A DNA stretch of 64,000 nucleotides from an uncultured bacterium. GTDB lineage: Bacteria > Bacillota_I > Bacilli_A > RFN20 > CAG-826. This document shows positions 28,236-35,205 of this stretch, piece after piece; the first letter of the stretch is position 1, and each line of letters opens with the position of its first letter. The notes beneath the pieces are model-generated. The model did no database searches and was not told the origin of the DNA. It was given only the letters and a program-made list of their open reading frames with translations. Where the stretch lies: NCBI GenBank assembly GCA_949297445.1, contig CASFSS010000006.1, forward strand, positions 31,228 through 95,227, given 5' to 3'. A program made the translations under genes and the position numbers.

Positions 28236-29362
28236 AAGTTTTACTAGGTTTGAGTGGTGGTGTCGATAGTGCTGTTGCCCTCTATTTGCTTTTAAAAGAA
28301 GGCTATGAGGTCGAGGCCTGCTTTATGCGCAACTGGGACGCCTTGGCCAATAATGATTATTTGGGTAATCCGACAATAAATGATGACATATGTCCGCAAG
28401 AGCAGGATTATCAAGACGCTTTAGCGGTCGCTAATCTTTTCGATGTTAAACTGCATCGCGTCGATTTTGTCAAAGAATATTGGGATAATGTGTTCGCTTT
28501 TTTTCTTGCGGAATATGAATGCGGAAGAACACCAAATCCAGACATTTTATGTAATAAATATATTAAGTTTGATGCTTTCTTGAAATACGCTAAAGAACAT
28601 GGCTTTGATAAGATAGCCATGGGTCATTATGCGGATATAACCTTATATAACAACCATTACTACATTAAAAAATGTCTTGATGAGACAAAAGATCAAACAT
28701 ATTTTTTATCCGAATTAAATGAAGAACAAATTAAGACGGCACTTTTTCCTTTAGGAAAGTTAACTAAAAAAGATGTGCGACAAATTGCTAAAAAGTTACA
28801 AATACCAATTGCCGACAAAAAAGATTCGACGGGTATCTGTTTTATTGGCGAACGTGAGTTTCGTTCTTTTTTAGAAAATTATATACCGGCAAAAACTGGC
28901 GATATTATCGACATGAAAACCGGCAATAAAATTGGTCAACATCGTGGAGTATTTTATTATACAATCGGCCAACATCGTGGACTTGGCATCGGAGGTATCC
29001 ACGGCCAAGAAGCGAAAGGCTGGTACATCGTGAAAAAAGATGTTCTTAAAAACATTTTATATGTGCAAAGTGGGGATGAAGAAAAATATCTCTATTCCGA
29101 TGAGGCACTCATAAAAAACATCAGTTATATCGATATAAACGATTTATCAACATCTAATGATGTCTACGTGAAATTCCGCTACCGGCAAAAAGATATTCCA
29201 GCAAAAATTGCGATGGTTGACAATAATACTTTACGATTATCATATGCGCCATTTAAAGCGGTGACACCTGGGCAAGAAGCGGTGATATACGCAAACGATG
29301 GTCGTTTGATTGCTAGCGGTAGAATTGATGCGACCTATCGAGAAGGTCGTCTCGTTAGCTAA
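28232..29362 (+). CDS. mnmA: tRNA-specific 2-thiouridylase MnmA
   Basis: GLSGGVDS PP-loop, CNKYIKF and DQTYFL motifs. 376 aa. Confidence 0.95.
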   Translation: MKVLLGLSGGVDSAVALYLLLKEGYEVEACFMRNWDALANNDYLGNPTINDDICPQEQDYQDALAVANLFDVKLHRVDFVKEYWDNVFAFFLAEYECGRTPNPDILCNKYIKFDAFLKYAKEHGFDKIAMGHYADITLYNNHYYIKKCLDETKDQTYFLSELNEEQIKTALFPLGKLTKKDVRQIAKKLQIPIADKKDSTGICFIGEREFRSFLENYIPAKTGDIIDMKTGNKIGQHRGVFYYTIGQHRGLGIGGIHGQEAKGWYIVKKDVLKNILYVQSGDEEKYLYSDEALIKNISYIDINDLSTSNDVYVKFRYRQKDIPAKIAMVDNNTLRLSYAPFKAVTPGQEAVIYANDGRLIASGRIDATYREGRLVS

Positions 29363-30156
29363 GCAAGTAACATTGTGTCGCTCATTTCTTTTGTGGCGAG
29401 CGAATTAAATTTTTCGAGCAAATCAGCGACAGTGAGTCGCTTTTTTTCTTCGCCGCTGGCTTCGAAAATTATCTTTCCTTCATCCATCATTATTAATCGA
29501 TTGCCATAACGAATAGCATCTTTCATATTGTGCGTTACCATTATTGTTGTAACTTGCATTTCATCGACAATTTTTTCAGTAAAATCCATGACTGTTTTAG
29601 CTGTTTTTGGATCTAATGCGGCAGTATGTTCATCGAGCAAGATTAATTTGGGATTATTGAAGGTTGCCATTAGTAGTGTTACCGATTGTCTCTCGCCGCC
29701 CGAGAAAGCCTCCATTCGTTCGTCGAGACGATTTTCTAATCCTAAGCCTAAGGGCGCTAGCATTTTTTTATAATCTTCTCTTTTTTTACGGCTATCCGAC
29801 CACTTTAAATTCAAATGTTTGCCACGTGAAAAAGCGAGGGCTAAATTTTGGCTCAAACTCATTTCACTGACGCTTCCTTGTTTAGGATCTTGAAAGACTC
29901 GCGAAATATAAGCGGCTCTTTTATGCTCTTTTAATTTTAATAAATTAATATCATCCAATCTAATTTCACCTAAATCCGGTACGATTTTACCGGCAATGAC
30001 GTTCAACAGAGTTGATTTACCAGAACCGTTTGAGCCTATAATTGTGACAAAATCGCCATCATTAATCCTTAAATTAATGCCTTTTAAAGCATAACGATCA
30101 TTTTTAGGATTATTATCGAGCATGAAAGTTTTATGAATATTATTTAATGTTAACAT
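29359..30156 (-). CDS. ABC transporter ATP-binding protein (putative Trp/Tyr-type uptake system)
   Basis: Walker A GSNGSGKST, signature FSGGERQ, Walker B LLDEHT. Last gene of a three-gene operon. Confidence 0.9.
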   Translation of the reverse strand: MLTLNNIHKTFMLDNNPKNDRYALKGINLRINDGDFVTIIGSNGSGKSTLLNVIAGKIVPDLGEIRLDDINLLKLKEHKRAAYISRVFQDPKQGSVSEMSLSQNLALAFSRGKHLNLKWSDSRKKREDYKKMLAPLGLGLENRLDERMEAFSGGERQSVTLLMATFNNPKLILLDEHTAALDPKTAKTVMDFTEKIVDEMQVTTIMVTHNMKDAIRYGNRLIMMDEGKIIFEASGEEKKRLTVADLLEKFNSLATKEMSDTMLLA

Positions 30157-31084
30157 CTCGATACCTCCTTTTTCTATTTTGCTTACTTTTAAAGTAAAAC
30201 ACTAATTCAGGAATGACCATCACCAAAACGATTATGGCAGCTTGAACAGCGTATTGATAAGAAGTATTAAACCCTTTAATTGATAAAATGAGCGATAGAA
30301 GCAACCAATAAACATATCCGCCGACTGTAACGGCAATAAGATGCACTTTGAAAGTCTTCGGATTAAAGATAACTTCCCCTAAAAAGACGATTGCTAAACC
30401 AATCACGATTGATCCTTTACCAGTTGTGGAAGTAATCGATTGATTATATTGTCCGAGCAAAGAGCCCGCTAACGCAATTAAAAGAGAAGAAATGGCCATG
30501 CCGATTATCTTCATTAAATCGACATTGATTCCTTGGGCTTTGGCCATAGTTTCGTTTTTGCCGGTCGCTCTTATTGCAACACCTAAATTTGTACCAAAGA
30601 ACCAGTATAAAGCGCCGGAAACTATCGCGATGACAATTAATAAAATTATTGTTGTACCTAAAAAGTTTCCCCAAAACACATTGCCCATTGCGCCTATCAA
30701 GGCGTTGGACAGCCCGCTATAAATTGTCTCTTTATCTTGATTTAATGCTAAATACCCATTGCTTAGTACAACTATAAATGAGACCAAAGCCGTCATCATA
30801 ACAATGCCGGATAATAGTGGTGGCAACTTTAGAAAAGTTGATAGCGAAGAGGTAATCATGCCTAATATGACGCCAGCAAGGCAAGAAATTAATAAGGCCA
30901 CAATGGCCGGCACGCCAGCGTTTATTAGAAGAATGGTAATAACCGCCGATAAAGGCATTACGCTTTCGACGCTCAAATCGGCAATGTCTAAGAGGCGAAA
31001 GGCAACAAAAACGCCCAAGCCGAAGACCGCCCAAATCAATCCTAATTCAATCGGATTAGTAAAAATATAACGCAATATGTCCAT
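30140..31084 (-). CDS. ABC transporter permease (BPD_transp_2-like)
   Basis: 314 aa with about 9 hydrophobic segments. Lies between the binding-protein and ATPase genes and overlaps the ATPase start. Confidence 0.88.
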   Translation of the reverse strand: MDILRYIFTNPIELGLIWAVFGLGVFVAFRLLDIADLSVESVMPLSAVITILLINAGVPAIVALLISCLAGVILGMITSSLSTFLKLPPLLSGIVMMTALVSFIVVLSNGYLALNQDKETIYSGLSNALIGAMGNVFWGNFLGTTIILLIVIAIVSGALYWFFGTNLGVAIRATGKNETMAKAQGINVDLMKIIGMAISSLLIALAGSLLGQYNQSITSTTGKGSIVIGLAIVFLGEVIFNPKTFKVHLIAVTVGGYVYWLLLSLILSIKGFNTSYQYAVQAAIIVLVMVIPELVFYFKSKQNRKRRYRDVNIK

Positions 31085-31086
31085 TT

Positions 31087-32079
31087 TTAAATTATTTCAT
31101 CGGCTACCGCCAATAAAGAGGCTGGTAGCTCGATTCCCCACGCAGTTGCCAATGTTTGATTCACCGATAGCAAGCAATCAGTTTGAAAGTATACAGGAAT
31201 ATCACCGGGTTTTTTGCCGTTTAGTATCTCTAGAGCAATTTCTCCAACTGCCTGCCCTAATTTGAGATAATCAACGCCTAATGACAAAATGCCTGCGCCA
31301 GAAAGTTGGTTGCTTTCACCAACTAATACAATCGGTTTATTTGACGAAGCGTCGATGGCAGCTTTTACCTCGTTGATTGAACTCGCAATCAAATTGTCGG
31401 TTGGAATATATAGCGCGTCGATTCCTTCATTTAATAAAGCACCTATATTTAATTTTGTTTCATTGACCGATGTAAAGGATCTCTCTACCCACGTCCAGCC
31501 ATTCTCTTCGATAGTTGCCTTGGCTAGATTAATTTGTTGGATAGAATTGCTCTCGCTAGCATTAAATGCTAAACCAACTTTTTCAATTTTATCGCCAAAA
31601 TATGTTTCTAATAGGCTAATGGCTTCTTCGACTGGTCCCATATCGGAAGCACCAGTTACATTCGCACCGGGATGATTATTATCTTCGACCAAACCAGCAT
31701 CGATTGGATCGGTGACGGCAGAAAACAAAACAGGTGTCGTTTTTCCGCTTCTTTTAACAGCATTTTTTAAACCGACCGAGGCGTCGGTAGCAATGCCGAG
31801 CAATAAATCCGAATTGCTCGTTAAATTAGCGGCCATTGTCTGCAAAATATTCAAATCACCTTCTGGATTTTGGGTATTGAAGACAATTTTTTGTCCGTCA
31901 ATTTCGCCCGCTTCGTTTAAGACCTCTTGAAAACCTTGATTAACTTGACTAAGCGCCGGATGGGTGGCAAGTTGTAAGATTCCAATGTCAATTGTGTCTG
32001 CATCGTTGCAAGATGTTAGTGGTACAACCAAAGCGATAAGAGTTGAGGCCACAAGTGTTGCTTTGAGTTTGTTTTTCAT
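31087..32079 (-). CDS. ABC transporter substrate-binding lipoprotein, PF04392 family (KEGG K01989-type, putative tryptophan/tyrosine binding protein)
   Basis: Signal peptide with lipobox PLTSC. Family-typical IGILQLATHPAL, LLLGIATDAS, VLFSAVTDP, NVTGASD and IPTDN blocks. AAGGAG ribosome-binding site. Confidence 0.85.
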   Translation of the reverse strand: MKNKLKATLVASTLIALVVPLTSCNDADTIDIGILQLATHPALSQVNQGFQEVLNEAGEIDGQKIVFNTQNPEGDLNILQTMAANLTSNSDLLLGIATDASVGLKNAVKRSGKTTPVLFSAVTDPIDAGLVEDNNHPGANVTGASDMGPVEEAISLLETYFGDKIEKVGLAFNASESNSIQQINLAKATIEENGWTWVERSFTSVNETKLNIGALLNEGIDALYIPTDNLIASSINEVKAAIDASSNKPIVLVGESNQLSGAGILSLGVDYLKLGQAVGEIALEILNGKKPGDIPVYFQTDCLLSVNQTLATAWGIELPASLLAVADEII

Positions 32080-32099
32080 ATTTTTCTCCTTTTAATAAA

Positions 32100-32130
32100 T
32101 AAAAACCCAAGTATCGTAGGACACCTGGGT
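32100..32130 (-). terminator. attenuator terminator in the leader of the ABC importer operon
   Basis: On the minus strand, ACCCAGGTGTC-CTAC-GATACTTGGGT (11 bp including G-U pairs) followed by TTTTTATTTATT. It ends about 20 nt before the ribosome-binding site of the binding-protein gene. Confidence 0.8.
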
Positions 32131-32195
32131 ATCATATGTTAACTATTGACTGTCCGGGTATCCTAACGGGGAATACCCAAACCAAGAAAAAGGCT

Positions 32196-32282
32196 TTAGA
32201 GTATTACACCCTCCTTTTGGCAATAGTAATAATAGTAGTACGCGCTGATGGGTAATACGCTAAAGCAATTATTGTTCATCAT
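32196..32282 (-). CDS. leader peptide with six consecutive tyrosine codons (MMNNNCFSVLPISAYYYYYYCQKEGVIL)
   Basis: 28 codons plus TAA, too short for the ORF track. AGGAGG lies 5 nt upstream of the first ATG. The Tyr run TAC TAC TAT TAT TAC TAT is at 32223-32240. The ORF sits between a promoter and the attenuator terminator. Confidence 0.7.
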   Translation of the reverse strand: MMNNNCFSVLPISAYYYYYYCQKEGVIL

Positions 32283-32306
32283 TGTTTCCTCCTATTGAAT
32301 GAAGAT

Positions 32307-32335
32307 ATTAAAGCAAATATTAAATTTTTTGCCAA
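32307..32335 (-). promoter_or_regulatory. candidate promoter of the leader-peptide/ABC importer transcript
   Basis: On the minus strand, TTGGCA, a 17-nt spacer, then TTTAAT with a TGC extended -10. The predicted start is about 15-20 nt before the leader ATG. Confidence 0.5.
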
Positions 32336-32382
32336 GCATTTTTGCACGAAGTTAAAAAAATTTATTTTTCTATACTATCACG

Positions 32383-32582
32383 CGATTAAAAGTGCTATTA
32401 TTAGAAAGCATTGGAAGGAAAGAAGCCATTCCTGGCGAGCCACTCCTTCAACAAGCGACCAATCATCGCCGTCGGCTGCGTTAAGGCTAAAAAGAGCGTT
32501 TGCCAAAAGGAAAAACATGGTAAACGAAATAGGATGGTACCGCGATATAATCGTTCCTTACGAGGCGGTTTTTTATTTTTTT
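32383..32582 (+). promoter_or_regulatory. T-box riboswitch leader of alaS
   Basis: T-box sequence AAATAGGATGGTACCGCG (32527-32544). The antiterminator has helices AGGA/TCCT and GCGA/TCGT flanking a 7-nt UGGUACC bulge. F-box-like GCGTTA lies at 32478-32483. The competing terminator (ACCGC...TCGT-TCCTT-ACGA-G-GCGGT) is followed by TTTTTTATTTTTTT just before the alaS ribosome-binding site. Confidence 0.9.
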
Positions 32583-32595
32583 AGGAGGTCTTTAT

Positions 32596-35205
32596 ATGCA
32601 TTATCTATCGAGCAGTGAAATAAGACAAAAATGGTTAGAATTTTTTCAAAGCAAAGGTCACCACGTAGAAAAAGGAGCGTCATTAATTCCTTATGATGAT
32701 CCAACCTTATTGTGGATTAATTCCGGAGTTGCTGCGCTTAAAAAATACATGGATGGTCGTGAAGTGCCGCCAGCAAAGCGCATAGTTAACGTACAAAAAT
32801 CTATTCGCACCAACGATATGGATAATGTCGGATATACCTCAAGACATCATACGTTCTTCGAGATGCTCGGTTGCTTTTCAATCGGCGACTATTTTCGCAA
32901 GGAGATAATTGCGTGGGCAAGCGAAATATTAACTAGTAAAGATTACTTTGATTTAGATAAAGATAAAATTTATATTACGTATAATCCGAGCGACTTAGAA
33001 ACTAAACAATTGTGGATAGAACATGGTTTTGCGGCCAACCACTTGATTCCACTAGAAAATAACTATTGGCAAATTGGCGAAGGACCGTGTGGGCCGAATA
33101 CCGAAGTGTTTTATGATCGGGGCGAAAAATATGATCCAAACCATTTGGGTGTACGACTATTGCAAGAGGAAATTGAAAACGATCGTTACATCGAAATATG
33201 GGGAATCGTCTTTTCTCAATATAATGCCGTTAACGGACAAAAACGTTCTGAATATAAAGAATTACCTAATAAAAACATCGATACAGGTGCTGGTTTAGAG
33301 CGCATCGCTTCGATTATTCAGCAGACTGATACAAATTTTGAAACTGATTTATTTTTGCCAATCATTAAGCAAATTGAAACGATGACCAAGTGCCCATACA
33401 AAGGCGAACATCTAATTGCCTACCGAGTCATTGCCGACCATATTCGAGCCTTAACCTTCGCTTTGAGCGATGGCGAAATCTTTTCTAACGAAGGCCGCGG
33501 CTATGTATTAAGACGTTTACTTCGTCGAGCGATGCGTTACGGTTCGACATTAGGTATCAAAGAACCATTTTTATATAAACTAGTAAAAACAGTTATTGGA
33601 ATATATAAAGATTTTTATCCTGAATTAGTTGATCATCAAAAGGATGTTGAAAAAAACATCAAAGGTGAGGAAGAACGTTTTTTAAAAACGTTAGAAAAAG
33701 GTGAATCGATTTTAGCTGATCTTCTAAAAAAAGAGAAATTTATTTCTGGCCAAGATGCTTTTAAACTCTATGATACATACGGCTTCCCGCTCGATTTAAC
33801 GAAAGAAATATGTCGACAAAAAGGCGTTGAAGTCGATGAAAAAGAATTTGCGACCTTGATGCTCCATCAAAAAGAATTGGCCCGCTCATCCCGTGAGGTA
33901 GCCGATAGCATGCATCGTCAGTCGAGCGATTTGTTACATTTCGAAGAACCGAGCACCTTTTTGTACGATAAATTGACAATTAAAGCGCGCGTTATCGGTC
34001 TATTTATTAATGGAGAAGCTGTCGATAAAATAACATCGAACGGCGAAGCAATCTTTGATCGTACAACTTTTTATGCCGAAAGCGGTGGTCAAGTTTGTGA
34101 TAGTGGTGAAATTTATAACGCTTCTTTTAAAGCTGAAGTCGTCGCTGTCAACAAAGCTCCTAATAAGCAACACCTTCATTCCATAGTAGTCACGAAGGGG
34201 CAGCTAAATGTCGGCGATGAATGTACGCTTTCTGTCAATCGTGCTAACCGCAATTTAACCATGCGTAATCATACGGCGACCCACTTGTTGCAAGCAGCTA
34301 TTGAAAAGGTATTAGGTGTGCAGGTTAAGCAAATGGGTTCTTATGTTTCTAAGGATTACCTTCGTTTTGACTTTTCTTATTTAGATAAAATCAAAAAATC
34401 TGAACTTTCTGAAATTGAAACGCTCGTCAATCGTTGGGTTAGCGAAGCAATTCCTGTAAAAATTCGCAATATGCCAATCGAAGAAGCCTACACATTAGGC
34501 GCCAAACACTTCTTTATGGATAAATATGGCAAAGAAGTTCGTGTCGTCATTATCGGCGATGTCTCTAAGGAGTTCTGTGGAGGCACCCACCTAAAATGCA
34601 CTGATGAGATTGGTCTTTTTAAAATTGTCAGCGAATCGTCAATTGCCGCCGGAGTGCGTCGCATTGAAGCTCGCACCTCACTCAACGCGCTTGACTATAT
34701 TAAGGGCGAGGAAGAAATCATTAATAACGTTGCAACCTCTTTAAATGCAAAATCAAACGCCGAAATCGACGACCGCTTAAAAGTGTTTATGAAGGATAAT
34801 GAACAATTGAAGACCGCCAATCTATCTTTGATAGATAAGTTGTCCGTCGTTTACGCTAAAGCGCTAAAAGAAGACATTGAATATGTTGGTAAAACTGCCT
34901 ATTTATTCGTGCACTTGCCAAAAGAAAATCGCCCAACAATCACTAAAATAAGCGATGCCATGAAAAGCGCGTTTACCGATTATGTCTTTATTTTTGTCGG
35001 AGCAAGCGAGGAGCGTAATCCTCTTCTTGTCGCCGTTGGCGAAGAGACGATTAAGCGTGGTATTAATGCGAATTCCTTAATGAGCGCCATCAACCAAGTA
35101 TGTGGCGGGCATGGCGGTGGCAAACCGCATTTTGCCCAAGGTTCAATTCAAGATGTTCAAAACATTAATCAAGCGAAAAAATGCGTTAAGGATTTATTAT
35201 CATGA
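32596..35205 (+). CDS. alaS: alanine--tRNA ligase
   Basis: 869 aa with HHTFFEMLG, the editing-domain motifs HTATHLL and CGGTH, and a C-terminal DHHA1-like GGHGGGK. AGGAGG ribosome-binding site. Confidence 0.97.
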   Translation: MHYLSSSEIRQKWLEFFQSKGHHVEKGASLIPYDDPTLLWINSGVAALKKYMDGREVPPAKRIVNVQKSIRTNDMDNVGYTSRHHTFFEMLGCFSIGDYFRKEIIAWASEILTSKDYFDLDKDKIYITYNPSDLETKQLWIEHGFAANHLIPLENNYWQIGEGPCGPNTEVFYDRGEKYDPNHLGVRLLQEEIENDRYIEIWGIVFSQYNAVNGQKRSEYKELPNKNIDTGAGLERIASIIQQTDTNFETDLFLPIIKQIETMTKCPYKGEHLIAYRVIADHIRALTFALSDGEIFSNEGRGYVLRRLLRRAMRYGSTLGIKEPFLYKLVKTVIGIYKDFYPELVDHQKDVEKNIKGEEERFLKTLEKGESILADLLKKEKFISGQDAFKLYDTYGFPLDLTKEICRQKGVEVDEKEFATLMLHQKELARSSREVADSMHRQSSDLLHFEEPSTFLYDKLTIKARVIGLFINGEAVDKITSNGEAIFDRTTFYAESGGQVCDSGEIYNASFKAEVVAVNKAPNKQHLHSIVVTKGQLNVGDECTLSVNRANRNLTMRNHTATHLLQAAIEKVLGVQVKQMGSYVSKDYLRFDFSYLDKIKKSELSEIETLVNRWVSEAIPVKIRNMPIEEAYTLGAKHFFMDKYGKEVRVVIIGDVSKEFCGGTHLKCTDEIGLFKIVSESSIAAGVRRIEARTSLNALDYIKGEEEIINNVATSLNAKSNAEIDDRLKVFMKDNEQLKTANLSLIDKLSVVYAKALKEDIEYVGKTAYLFVHLPKENRPTITKISDAMKSAFTDYVFIFVGASEERNPLLVAVGEETIKRGINANSLMSAINQVCGGHGGGKPHFAQGSIQDVQNINQAKKCVKDLLS

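Follow-up and report, generated by a model that had tools for sequence, protein, structure and literature searches.

A candidate tyrosine-sensing leader-peptide attenuator ahead of an ABC importer operon in an uncultured member of the Bacilli

In the leader of the enterobacterial his operon, six RNA segments pair either as A:B, C:D and E:F or as B:C and D:E, and to our knowledge no classical leader of this kind is built on a run of tyrosine (Tyr) codons. Nor did we find a described Tyr-run leader peptide in the literature searched, whose coverage was incomplete, and an earlier description is possible. Other leader peptides have been reported in Gram-positive bacteria: the aroR leader upstream of Corynebacterium glutamicum aroF carries phenylalanine (Phe)-Tyr-Phe, involves ribosome stalling and responds to Phe (Neshat et al. 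2014, as cited in PMC11802643), while histidine (His) leader attenuators were predicted in Firmicutes of the Bacillus cereus group, Peptostreptococcaceae and Erysipelotrichales (PMC2965389, PMC9413887). Transporters of the trpXYZ type with PF04392 binding proteins are known to be preceded by T-box leaders, as for trpX of Streptococcus suis (PMC9382623). Here, we analysed the leader of such a transporter in a 64,000-nucleotide stretch (hereafter the window) from an uncultured bacterium (GTDB lineage Bacteria; Bacillota_I; Bacilli_A; RFN20; CAG-826; assembly GCA_949297445.1, contig CASFSS010000006.1, positions 31,228 to 95,227), for which an original prediction made from the sequence alone had proposed a six-tyrosine leader peptide with terminator and antiterminator pairings. 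We observed the sequence features of this leader, their conservation, and alternative in-silico pairings with covariation in relatives, which together suggest, with a probability that we put at about 0.8, a ribosome-mediated transcription attenuator sensing charged tRNA-Tyr and controlling a tyrosine-type ATP-binding cassette (ABC) importer operon.

A Tyr-codon leader and its relatives

The leader lies on the minus strand, between a candidate promoter and the binding-protein gene of the importer, with the following elements (coordinates are those of the window).

32307-32335, minus strand: candidate sigma-70 promoter read from the sequence, with -35 TTGGCA (32335-32330), a spacer of 17 nucleotides (nt), TG (32315-32314) and -10 TTTAAT (32312-32307).
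32288-32293, minus strand: Shine-Dalgarno sequence (SD) AGGAGG of the leader open reading frame (ORF), 5 nt upstream of the ATG at 32282 and 8 nt upstream of the ATG at 32279.
32196-32282, minus strand: leader ORF of 28 codons plus stop, starting at ATG 32282 or 32279 and ending with TAA (32198-32196), encoding the peptide MMNNNCFSVLPISAYYYYYYCQKEGVIL.
32223-32240, minus strand: putative regulatory run of six consecutive Tyr codons, TAC TAC TAT TAT TAC TAT, read directly.
32094-32104, minus strand: U-tract of the intrinsic terminator, UUUUAUUUAUU, from direct reading and a terminator scan.

Reading of the minus strand returned the 28-codon ORF, its AGGAGG, the second ATG and the six Tyr codons exactly where they had been predicted, and an independent terminator scan called the proposed hairpin and U-tract as a stem of 11 pairs (32130-32105) followed by TTTTATTTAT, with 25 nt separating the terminator from the binding-protein ATG. 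Leader-peptide attenuators are recognized by five features, three of which could be read directly here: an SD, a start codon and a short ORF inside the 5' leader; a run of cognate codons, in this case six Tyr codons ahead of an importer with Tyr-specificity residues; and an intrinsic terminator that separates the leader ORF from the first of the structural genes. Across both strands of the window (37.6% G+C), this leader ORF is the only short ORF with at least five consecutive Tyr or Phe residues, no other codon-run mini-ORF with an SD occurs elsewhere in it, and such a Tyr/Phe-run ORF appeared in none of 5000 shuffled versions of the 300 nt upstream.

The binding protein of the window was found identical on 23 metagenome contigs, with a leader free of polymorphism. 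Its nearest other homologues were 45-58% identical, those with a source name being Bacilli bacterium metagenome-assembled genomes (MAGs). All five distinct loci fetched for the closest homologues harbor their own mini-ORF with SD and ATG, a Tyr/Phe run and a terminator immediately ahead of the binding-protein gene, with the following leader peptides (loci are designated by L numbers).

Locus L006: MEKIVQNKNINLFNSYYYFYYRLK
Locus L007: MKANAKLVVISNSYFYYYFYYERNVSHE
Locus L008: MKDSITSIQIVTSFYYYYYLGFYLPF
Locus L009: MKTITKISLISNSYFYYYYYYKGIVSRGK
Locus L011: MNKKYIQQVSSSYFYYYFYYFK

In two of these relatives, L007 and L009, a TTGCCA -35 followed by TATAAT stands at the place equivalent to the window promoter.

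A single-protein search of species-representative genomes returned no relative; an alignment query against such genomes yielded 80 loci, whose upstream 300 nt were surveyed on the sense strand for a short ORF with at least five consecutive Tyr/Phe residues, including at least three Tyr. Such an ORF was present in 22 of the 80 loci, compared with 1/80 on the antisense strand and 1/1698 among other 300-nt tiles, and a threshold of four residues gave 28 leaders, the window and its five close relatives included. Scanning metagenomes, where no relative was closer than 44%, revealed leader ORFs in a further 14 of 71 loci, bringing their number to about 35 loci beyond the five closest and to about 40 relatives overall. 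The original prediction had proposed conservation of the short ORF and its aromatic run as a check of the model, and both are thus retained in all five of the closest loci and in the more distant ones. A GGAG, GAGG or AGGA stands within 4-16 nt of an ATG in nearly all related leaders, whose starts were chosen in the survey by the best SD, and an intrinsic terminator lies 20-40 nt ahead of the transporter start in nearly all leader loci. Within the runs, the whole family uses TAT (94), TAC (45), TTT (27) and TTC (3) and no other codon, and outside the run the leader peptides are not conserved and the RNAs differ.

By record label, with the reservation that a few MAG labels may be binning errors, the carriers include Acholeplasmatales, "Mollicutes" and Bacilli MAGs, Erysipelotrichia (e.g. 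Absicoccus), Candidatus Onthovivens, Ruminococcus sp. CAG:382 and Anaerofustis stercorihominis. One subgroup of nine loci (L014, L016, L023, L027, L028, L044, L081, L094 and L099) has a Tyr run that is mostly followed by Pro-Arg (YYYYPR...), and the 5' arm of its terminator is in most cases GUUAUUAC, resembling Tyr codons. In these loci, the Tyr-codon run itself may serve as segment 1 of a more trp-like layout.

Searches against known RNA families covered both the window and its relatives. At Rfam gathering scores, no family matched the window or any of the 27 leader-ORF loci scanned. A permissive cmscan of 31980-32700 (E <= 10) detected neither a T-box (RF00230) nor RF02863 in the transporter leader, the only T-box matched being that of alaS on the plus strand, and the Rfam His, Leu, Thr, Trp, Phe and leu/phe leader families matched neither the window at gathering score nor this region at E <= 10. 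A known riboswitch or T-box explaining the region better, which the original prediction had listed as grounds for giving up its model, was therefore not found by the Rfam scans.

Alternative pairings in the window and across the family

Folding of the leader defined six segments that can engage in mutually exclusive helices.

32247-32266, minus strand: segment 1, 5' of the Tyr run, pairing with segment 2 in the untranslated leader (minimum free energy (MFE) fold of the free leader).
32192-32213, minus strand: segment 2, the last ORF codons and the stop, pairing with segment 1 or 3, masked by a ribosome at the stop codon.
32168-32183, minus strand: segment 3, 5' arm of the central hairpin, pairing with segment 4 (12 bp) or segment 2 (11+5 bp).
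32152-32165, minus strand: segment 4, 3' arm of the central hairpin and predicted antiterminator strand, pairing with segment 3 or the terminator 5' arm.
32117-32130, minus strand: segment 5, terminator 5' arm.
32105-32115, minus strand: segment 6, terminator 3' arm.

The free leader folded into helices 1:2 (18 pairs, 32266-32247 with 32213-32193), 3:4 (12 pairs, 32182-32171 with 32163-32152) and 5:6. To represent the ribosome, we masked the A-site codon and 12 nt downstream and folded only the RNA made before the terminator 3' arm. For a ribosome stalled in the Tyr run, the MFE structure combined 2:3 (11+5 pairs) with 4:5 at -32.7 kcal/mol, the antiterminator 4:5 comprising 11 pairs (32165-32154 with 32128-32117) with pair probabilities of 0.79-1.0. 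For a ribosome that had reached the stop codon and covered segment 2, 3:4 formed and the terminator arm was left without an upstream partner. The last Tyr codon ends 9 nt ahead of segment 2, whose first base lies about 12 nt past that A-site codon, approximately the 3' half of a footprint; given typical footprint sizes, a stalled ribosome would leave segment 2 just exposed and a ribosome at the stop would cover it fully. The fourth feature of leader-peptide attenuators, an antiterminator that depends on ribosome position, was thus obtained in silico; the fifth, a translated leader with read-through that follows the supply of charged cognate tRNA, is a prediction of the model.

This arrangement differs from the one first drawn. 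The 1:2 helix of the original prediction is real, but its 7+7 bp fell short of the 18 pairs found. The 10-nt complementarity that it noted between segment 2 and the terminator arm does exist, with 9 of 10 pairs and one A.G mismatch, but is not the favoured antiterminator: the direct pairing of 32211-32202 with 32136-32127 reached -25.7 kcal/mol when forced, against -32.7 for the relay, and had an ensemble probability of about 1e-5. The local hairpin at 32152-32182, described as separate, forms as 3:4 and would instead be part of the switch, with 2:3 freeing segment 4 for segment 5. Our folding favours this hairpin as the relay element of a six-segment attenuator, in which 2:3 and 4:5 oppose 1:2, 3:4 and 5:6. 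In the MFE fold of the complete free leader, the leader SD UAGGAGGAA (32286-32294, minus strand) also pairs with UUUUUCUUG (32183-32191) just past the stop codon, a pairing that could shut off re-initiation on finished transcripts.

From these features we infer a transcription start, a translated and stalling leader, a kinetic competition and tyrosine as the signal, which would act together as follows. Transcription would start about 10 nt upstream of AGGAGG and a ribosome would begin the 28-codon leader. When Tyr-tRNA is plentiful, the ribosome would reach the stop codon and cover segment 2, leading to the 3:4 and 5:6 form, and RNA polymerase would halt at the U-tract, 25 nt ahead of the binding-protein gene. 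When Tyr-tRNA is scarce, the ribosome would stall on the six Tyr codons, keeping segment 1 off segment 2, and the exposed segment 2 would capture segment 3 as it emerges, leaving segment 4 free to pair with segment 5; this 4:5 helix would block the terminator and allow transcription of the operon. If the leader is not translated, 1:2, 3:4 and 5:6 would all form, resulting in termination.

A relay of the same type was observed in L006, L007 and L009, and among 41 classified leaders 29 were relays and 7 were direct four-segment forms. On the full RNA, the terminator hairpin has an equilibrium probability of about 0.95 in every ribosome state; this measure being uninformative, we determined instead the sequestration of the terminator 5' arm before its 3' arm is transcribed. 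The difference between the stalled and at-stop states averaged 0.32 for real leaders, against 0.05 when the spacers were shuffled (Wilcoxon p = 2e-6, n = 25). Compared with shuffles, antiterminator duplexes had a mean z of -1.6, with z < -2 in 18 of 39 leaders.

Covariation was assessed in nine relatives of the subfamily sharing AGGUG and CACCU motifs, aligned with MAFFT without structural input. Window segments 3 and 4 were misaligned with these relatives, so that the window was excluded from the counts, and as no metagenome relative was closer than 44%, covariation does not rest on sequences directly alignable with the window leader. For the antiterminator 4:5, 82.7% of cells were paired, against 23-37% with a slid partner, and four of nine pairs had changed on both sides (for example GC:6 and AU:3 at one pair; AU:3, GC:2 and UA:2 at another), with a covariation score above all 500 shuffles. 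For the termination conformation 3:4 plus 5:6, the paired share of cells was 83.2% and fell to 23-42% on sliding; seven of its pairs showed changes on both sides. Helix 2:3 shifts register between sequences and was not counted by columns. Judged from these substitutions, both mutually exclusive structures are under selection in the relatives, in line with the compensatory changes that the original prediction had proposed to look for. The window leader, too diverged for the subfamily alignment, would build equivalent helices from a different sequence according to our folding models.

The importer, T-boxes of its homologues and a Lactobacillales sister class

The putative regulated operon comprises three genes.

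31087-32079, minus strand: substrate-binding lipoprotein gene, PF04392 (Pfam E = 4e-56), with ATG at 32079 preceded by AGGAG (32090-32086).
30140-31084, minus strand: ABC permease gene, PF02653 (Pfam domain).
29359-30156, minus strand: ABC ATPase gene, PF00005 (Pfam domain), overlapping the end of the permease gene.

Among solved structures, the best relative of the binding protein was CD0873 of Clostridioides difficile (6HNI, E = 1e-50), followed by SP1069 of S. pneumoniae (3LFT) and VC_1101 of V. cholerae (3LKV). CD0873 binds tyrosine; its Glu-263 bonds the phenol OH and is replaced by Ala in tryptophan (Trp) and Phe binders, and Tyr-279, a Gln in the Trp binder, has also been linked to specificity (PMC6816091). 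In a HMMER alignment, these residues correspond to Glu255 and Tyr271 of the window protein, and 27 of the 28 leader-bearing loci, the window included, have Glu or Asp together with Tyr at both positions. The same signature occurs in most leader-less homologues, and it thus marks the sampled subfamily and not the leader class; as a separator of leader-bearing from leader-less loci it fails, nearly all sampled homologues having Glu/Asp and Tyr. On sequence grounds, the specificity residues of the binding protein are of the tyrosine type, which fits the Tyr codons of the leader, and the leader in turn favours an annotation of these transporters as importers of tyrosine (or Tyr/Phe).

Six of the leader-less loci carry a T-box at the same position, with binding proteins 34-43% identical. 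Their specifier contexts were read by eye, a reading that relies on the usual specifier-loop context.

L040, 1200-1449: T-box, GAA-UAC-A (Tyr)
L077, 1117-1355: T-box, GAA-UAC-A (Tyr)
L054, 1027-1282: T-box, GAA-UUC (Phe)
L063, 782-1034: T-box, GAA-UUC (Phe)
L084, 1036-1300: T-box, GAA-UUC (Phe)
L079, 89-342: T-box, specifier ambiguous

These Tyr and Phe readings also agree with tyrosine as the cognate amino acid of the window leader. By this comparison of sequences, leader ORF and T-box are alternative and mutually exclusive solutions at homologous loci. The leader ORF was the commoner of the two in our sample (22-25 of 80 loci, against 6 of 80), and the statement of the original prediction that T-boxes normally control this transporter family does not agree with these counts for the sampled subfamily.

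A second and more mixed form of leader was found in Lactobacillales. There, RF02863 ("Enterococcus sRNA_2410") matches directly upstream of the homologous PF04392 gene with 61-177 bits, in six Enterococcus loci, Vagococcus, Desemzia, Aerococcus, Alkalibacterium and a Carnobacteriaceae bacterium.

RF02863 loci: L206 (Enterococcus thailandicus, 602-838), L203, L208, L209, L212, L213, L210, L195, L224, L048 and L065

A conserved mini-ORF with SD and ATG, ending in ...QLNNFYFSYFR or ...FYYFSFFR, was present in 46 of 79 Lactobacillales loci. In L206, the ORF spans 602-664 and the RF02863 match 648-838, such that the 5' end of the family overlaps the 3' end of the ORF. The small RNA (sRNA) sRNA_2410 was described as a 195-nt RNA with two transcripts on northern blots and no leader interpretation (Sinel et al. 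2017, PMC5593968). In Streptococcus agalactiae, elements of 195 and 270 nt with premature termination were reported upstream of the paralogous ABC operons gbs1262-1260 and gbs2033-2031, the gbs2033-2031 type occurring also upstream of aroFBC-tyrA in Enterococcus faecium (Rosinski-Chupin et al. 2015, PMC4448216). Aromatic amino-acid riboswitches were proposed for them, and the word "peptide" is absent from the main text (PMC4448216). In S. agalactiae ATCC 13813 (L233:516-838), we found a TTGACA/TAAACT promoter, AAGGAGAG, an ORF encoding MLIKSSIIKQTNTYYYFSFFR and a terminator about 285 nt downstream of the promoter and upstream of the binding-protein gene; this locus is probably one of the two published elements.

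Like the window leader, RF02863 stands ahead of homologous PF04392 genes and ends in a terminator, and for this sister class a short transcript is documented by northern blot or RNA-seq. By contrast, Phe and Tyr are intermingled around a conserved Ser in the Lactobacillales peptides, in place of a pure Tyr run, and Ser stands where Glu would be at the specificity position of the corresponding binding proteins. The published readings are those of a trans-acting sRNA and a riboswitch, not of a leader peptide. In our view, sRNA_2410 probably arises by termination at a Phe/Tyr leader-peptide attenuator. The published S. agalactiae and Enterococcus data document premature termination in vivo for the sister class, a leader-peptide reading being absent from the literature searched.

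The neighbourhood of the window operon also contains a T-box. The divergent alaS gene starts at 32596 and its T-box (32402-32561, plus strand), which had been predicted, is indeed present; with 50.9 bits against a gathering score of 93 (E = 3.9e-10), it would be missed by default annotation. It has the conserved GGUGGUACCGCG-type box, and its Stem I appears shortened, with large model deletions. On the other side, mnmA and dtd (D-tyrosyl-tRNA deacylase, PF02580; 27780-29362, plus strand) converge on the end of the transporter operon. The order alaS, transporter, mnmA-dtd is also found in L001, L007 and L009, and is kept in relatives whose binding proteins are only 47-48% identical.

Competing explanations and comparison with known attenuators

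Several points weigh against attenuation by a Tyr leader peptide. In Bacillus subtilis, transcription outruns the leading ribosome, and leader-peptide attenuation in Bacilli would consequently depend on pausing of the polymerase or on local coupling. For the full-length RNA, folding favours the terminator conformation over the antiterminator by about 7 kcal/mol (-39.9 versus -32.7 kcal/mol), so that read-through must be kinetic. The statistics of the window itself are modest: segment 4 provides the best upstream duplex for the terminator arm (-15.6 kcal/mol, z = -2.05 versus shuffles), but 8 of 200 shuffles were as good, and the stalled-versus-stop ensemble difference of 0.17 was reached by 11 of 40 shuffles. 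Across the family, 32 of 40 real leaders passed the MFE switch criterion, which lends support but is permissive, 41% of shuffles passing it as well. The identity of the leader on all 23 contigs leaves no within-population variation to test. Finally, the hexamers, spacer and TGC of the proposed promoter do lie at the predicted positions, but a consensus scan did not call it, its -10 having T instead of A at position 2.

Three other explanations were considered. The leader could be a riboswitch whose bound metabolite is tyrosine, a different aromatic amino acid or a precursor, with an incidental mini-ORF; the premature termination upstream of gbs1262-1260 and gbs2033-2031 was read as reflecting new riboswitches (Rosinski-Chupin et al. 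2015, PMC4448216), and the subfamily closest to the window has a conserved AGGUG...CACCU...AGGUG. However, these conserved motifs are fully explained by the mutually exclusive helices 3:4, 4:5 and 5:6, and no unpaired, conserved, aptamer-like core is visible. Between subfamilies the RNA sequence is not conserved, the sole feature common to all of the approximately 40 leaders being the in-frame succession of SD, ATG, Tyr/Phe run and stop, and even the fetched S. agalactiae locus has an SD and the leader ORF MLIKSSIIKQTNTYYYFSFFR. We accordingly regard a riboswitch as unlikely. A trans-acting factor recognizing the UAY repeat or another leader element independently of translation, be it a TRAP- or HutP-like protein or a T-box-like uncharged tRNA, seems more improbable still. 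TRAP and HutP do recognize triplet repeats, and T-boxes regulate homologous transporters in other lineages, but no T-box matched the leader at E <= 10. Instead of the spaced (G/U)AG or UAG triplets typical of TRAP and HutP sites, the leader has six contiguous UAY codons, no search for a cognate protein having been made. These repeats are contiguous codons, always in frame with the SD and ATG and never broken by UAA or UAG, and the interchange of Tyr and Phe codons is understandable if amino acids or tRNAs are sensed, but not if a fixed RNA motif is. In addition, where segment 2 lies with respect to the stop codon agrees with a ribosome footprint.

The explanation that we consider the least credible is that the ORF encodes a functional small protein or arose by chance, the hairpin being a constitutive, partial or bidirectional terminator without amino-acid sensing. 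AT-rich intergenic DNA easily yields TAT and TTT triplets, and in every state the terminator conformation is the lowest in energy. Against a chance ORF stand the shuffles (0/5000) and control tiles (1/1698); against a small protein, the conservation of the run alone and not of the remaining peptide; and against a constitutive terminator, an antiterminator complementarity that exceeds shuffles and covaries. Attenuation by a Tyr leader peptide thus remains the reading that we favour for the window.

We lean, less firmly, towards a broader interpretation, in which Tyr/Phe-run leaders are a widespread and unrecognized control of tyrosine-type PF04392 importers across Bacillota, and possibly of aro/tyrA in E. 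faecium, with sRNA_2410 and the S. agalactiae riboswitch candidates as attenuator products. By record label, this control would extend to Acholeplasmatales, Mollicutes, other uncultured Bacilli, Erysipelotrichales and some Clostridia, with the Phe/Tyr form in enterococci, streptococci and carnobacteria. If true, it would show functional coupling of the leading ribosome to RNA polymerase in leader regions across many Bacilli. The attenuator proposed for the window would, for its part, make tyrosine one more of the few amino acids known to be sensed by leader peptides, and place an importer, and not only biosynthetic operons, under leader-peptide control in Bacillota. The use of a T-box in some lineages and of a leader peptide in other lineages for the same signal would constitute a clean natural replacement of one sensor by another. 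These leaders also suggest the re-annotation of one Rfam "sRNA" family and of two published riboswitch candidates. The uncoupling of the B. subtilis type that such leaders would have to overcome, together with related forms in tractable streptococci and enterococci (S. agalactiae, S. salivarius and enterococci), makes this leader family interesting, leader-region coupling in Firmicutes being directly testable in these organisms.

Compared with described systems, the Tyr-run leader would represent a new amino-acid class within a known mechanism. With the enterobacterial leader-peptide attenuators, of which his and pheA/pheST (pheL) come closest, the window shares a run of cognate codons in a short ORF followed by an intrinsic terminator, a predicted choice between exclusive helices set by the position of the ribosome, and termination of the untranslated RNA. 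It differs from these classical leaders by its Tyr codons, its importer target in place of a biosynthetic or aminoacyl-tRNA synthetase gene, its Bacillota host and the lack of sequence similarity. The his leader has the closest layout, the relay of the window and of 29 of the 41 leaders being regarded here as his-like. The aroR leader, as it is presented in the citing source, is likewise an aromatic-codon leader peptide controlling an aromatic amino-acid gene in a Gram-positive bacterium, but it has a single Tyr codon, responds to Phe, is actinobacterial and controls a biosynthetic target. The Firmicutes His leaders offer a precedent for leader peptides replacing T-boxes and, like the window family, are known from comparative genomics only; they differ by their His codons, their his or hisS targets and their unrelated sequences. 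Finally, Tyr, Phe and Trp T-boxes share with the window leader the induction of an importer upon accumulation of uncharged cognate tRNA, the choice between terminator and antiterminator, and the same genomic position; the T-box binds the tRNA directly, whereas the window leader, devoid of T-box motifs, would rely on a stalled ribosome.

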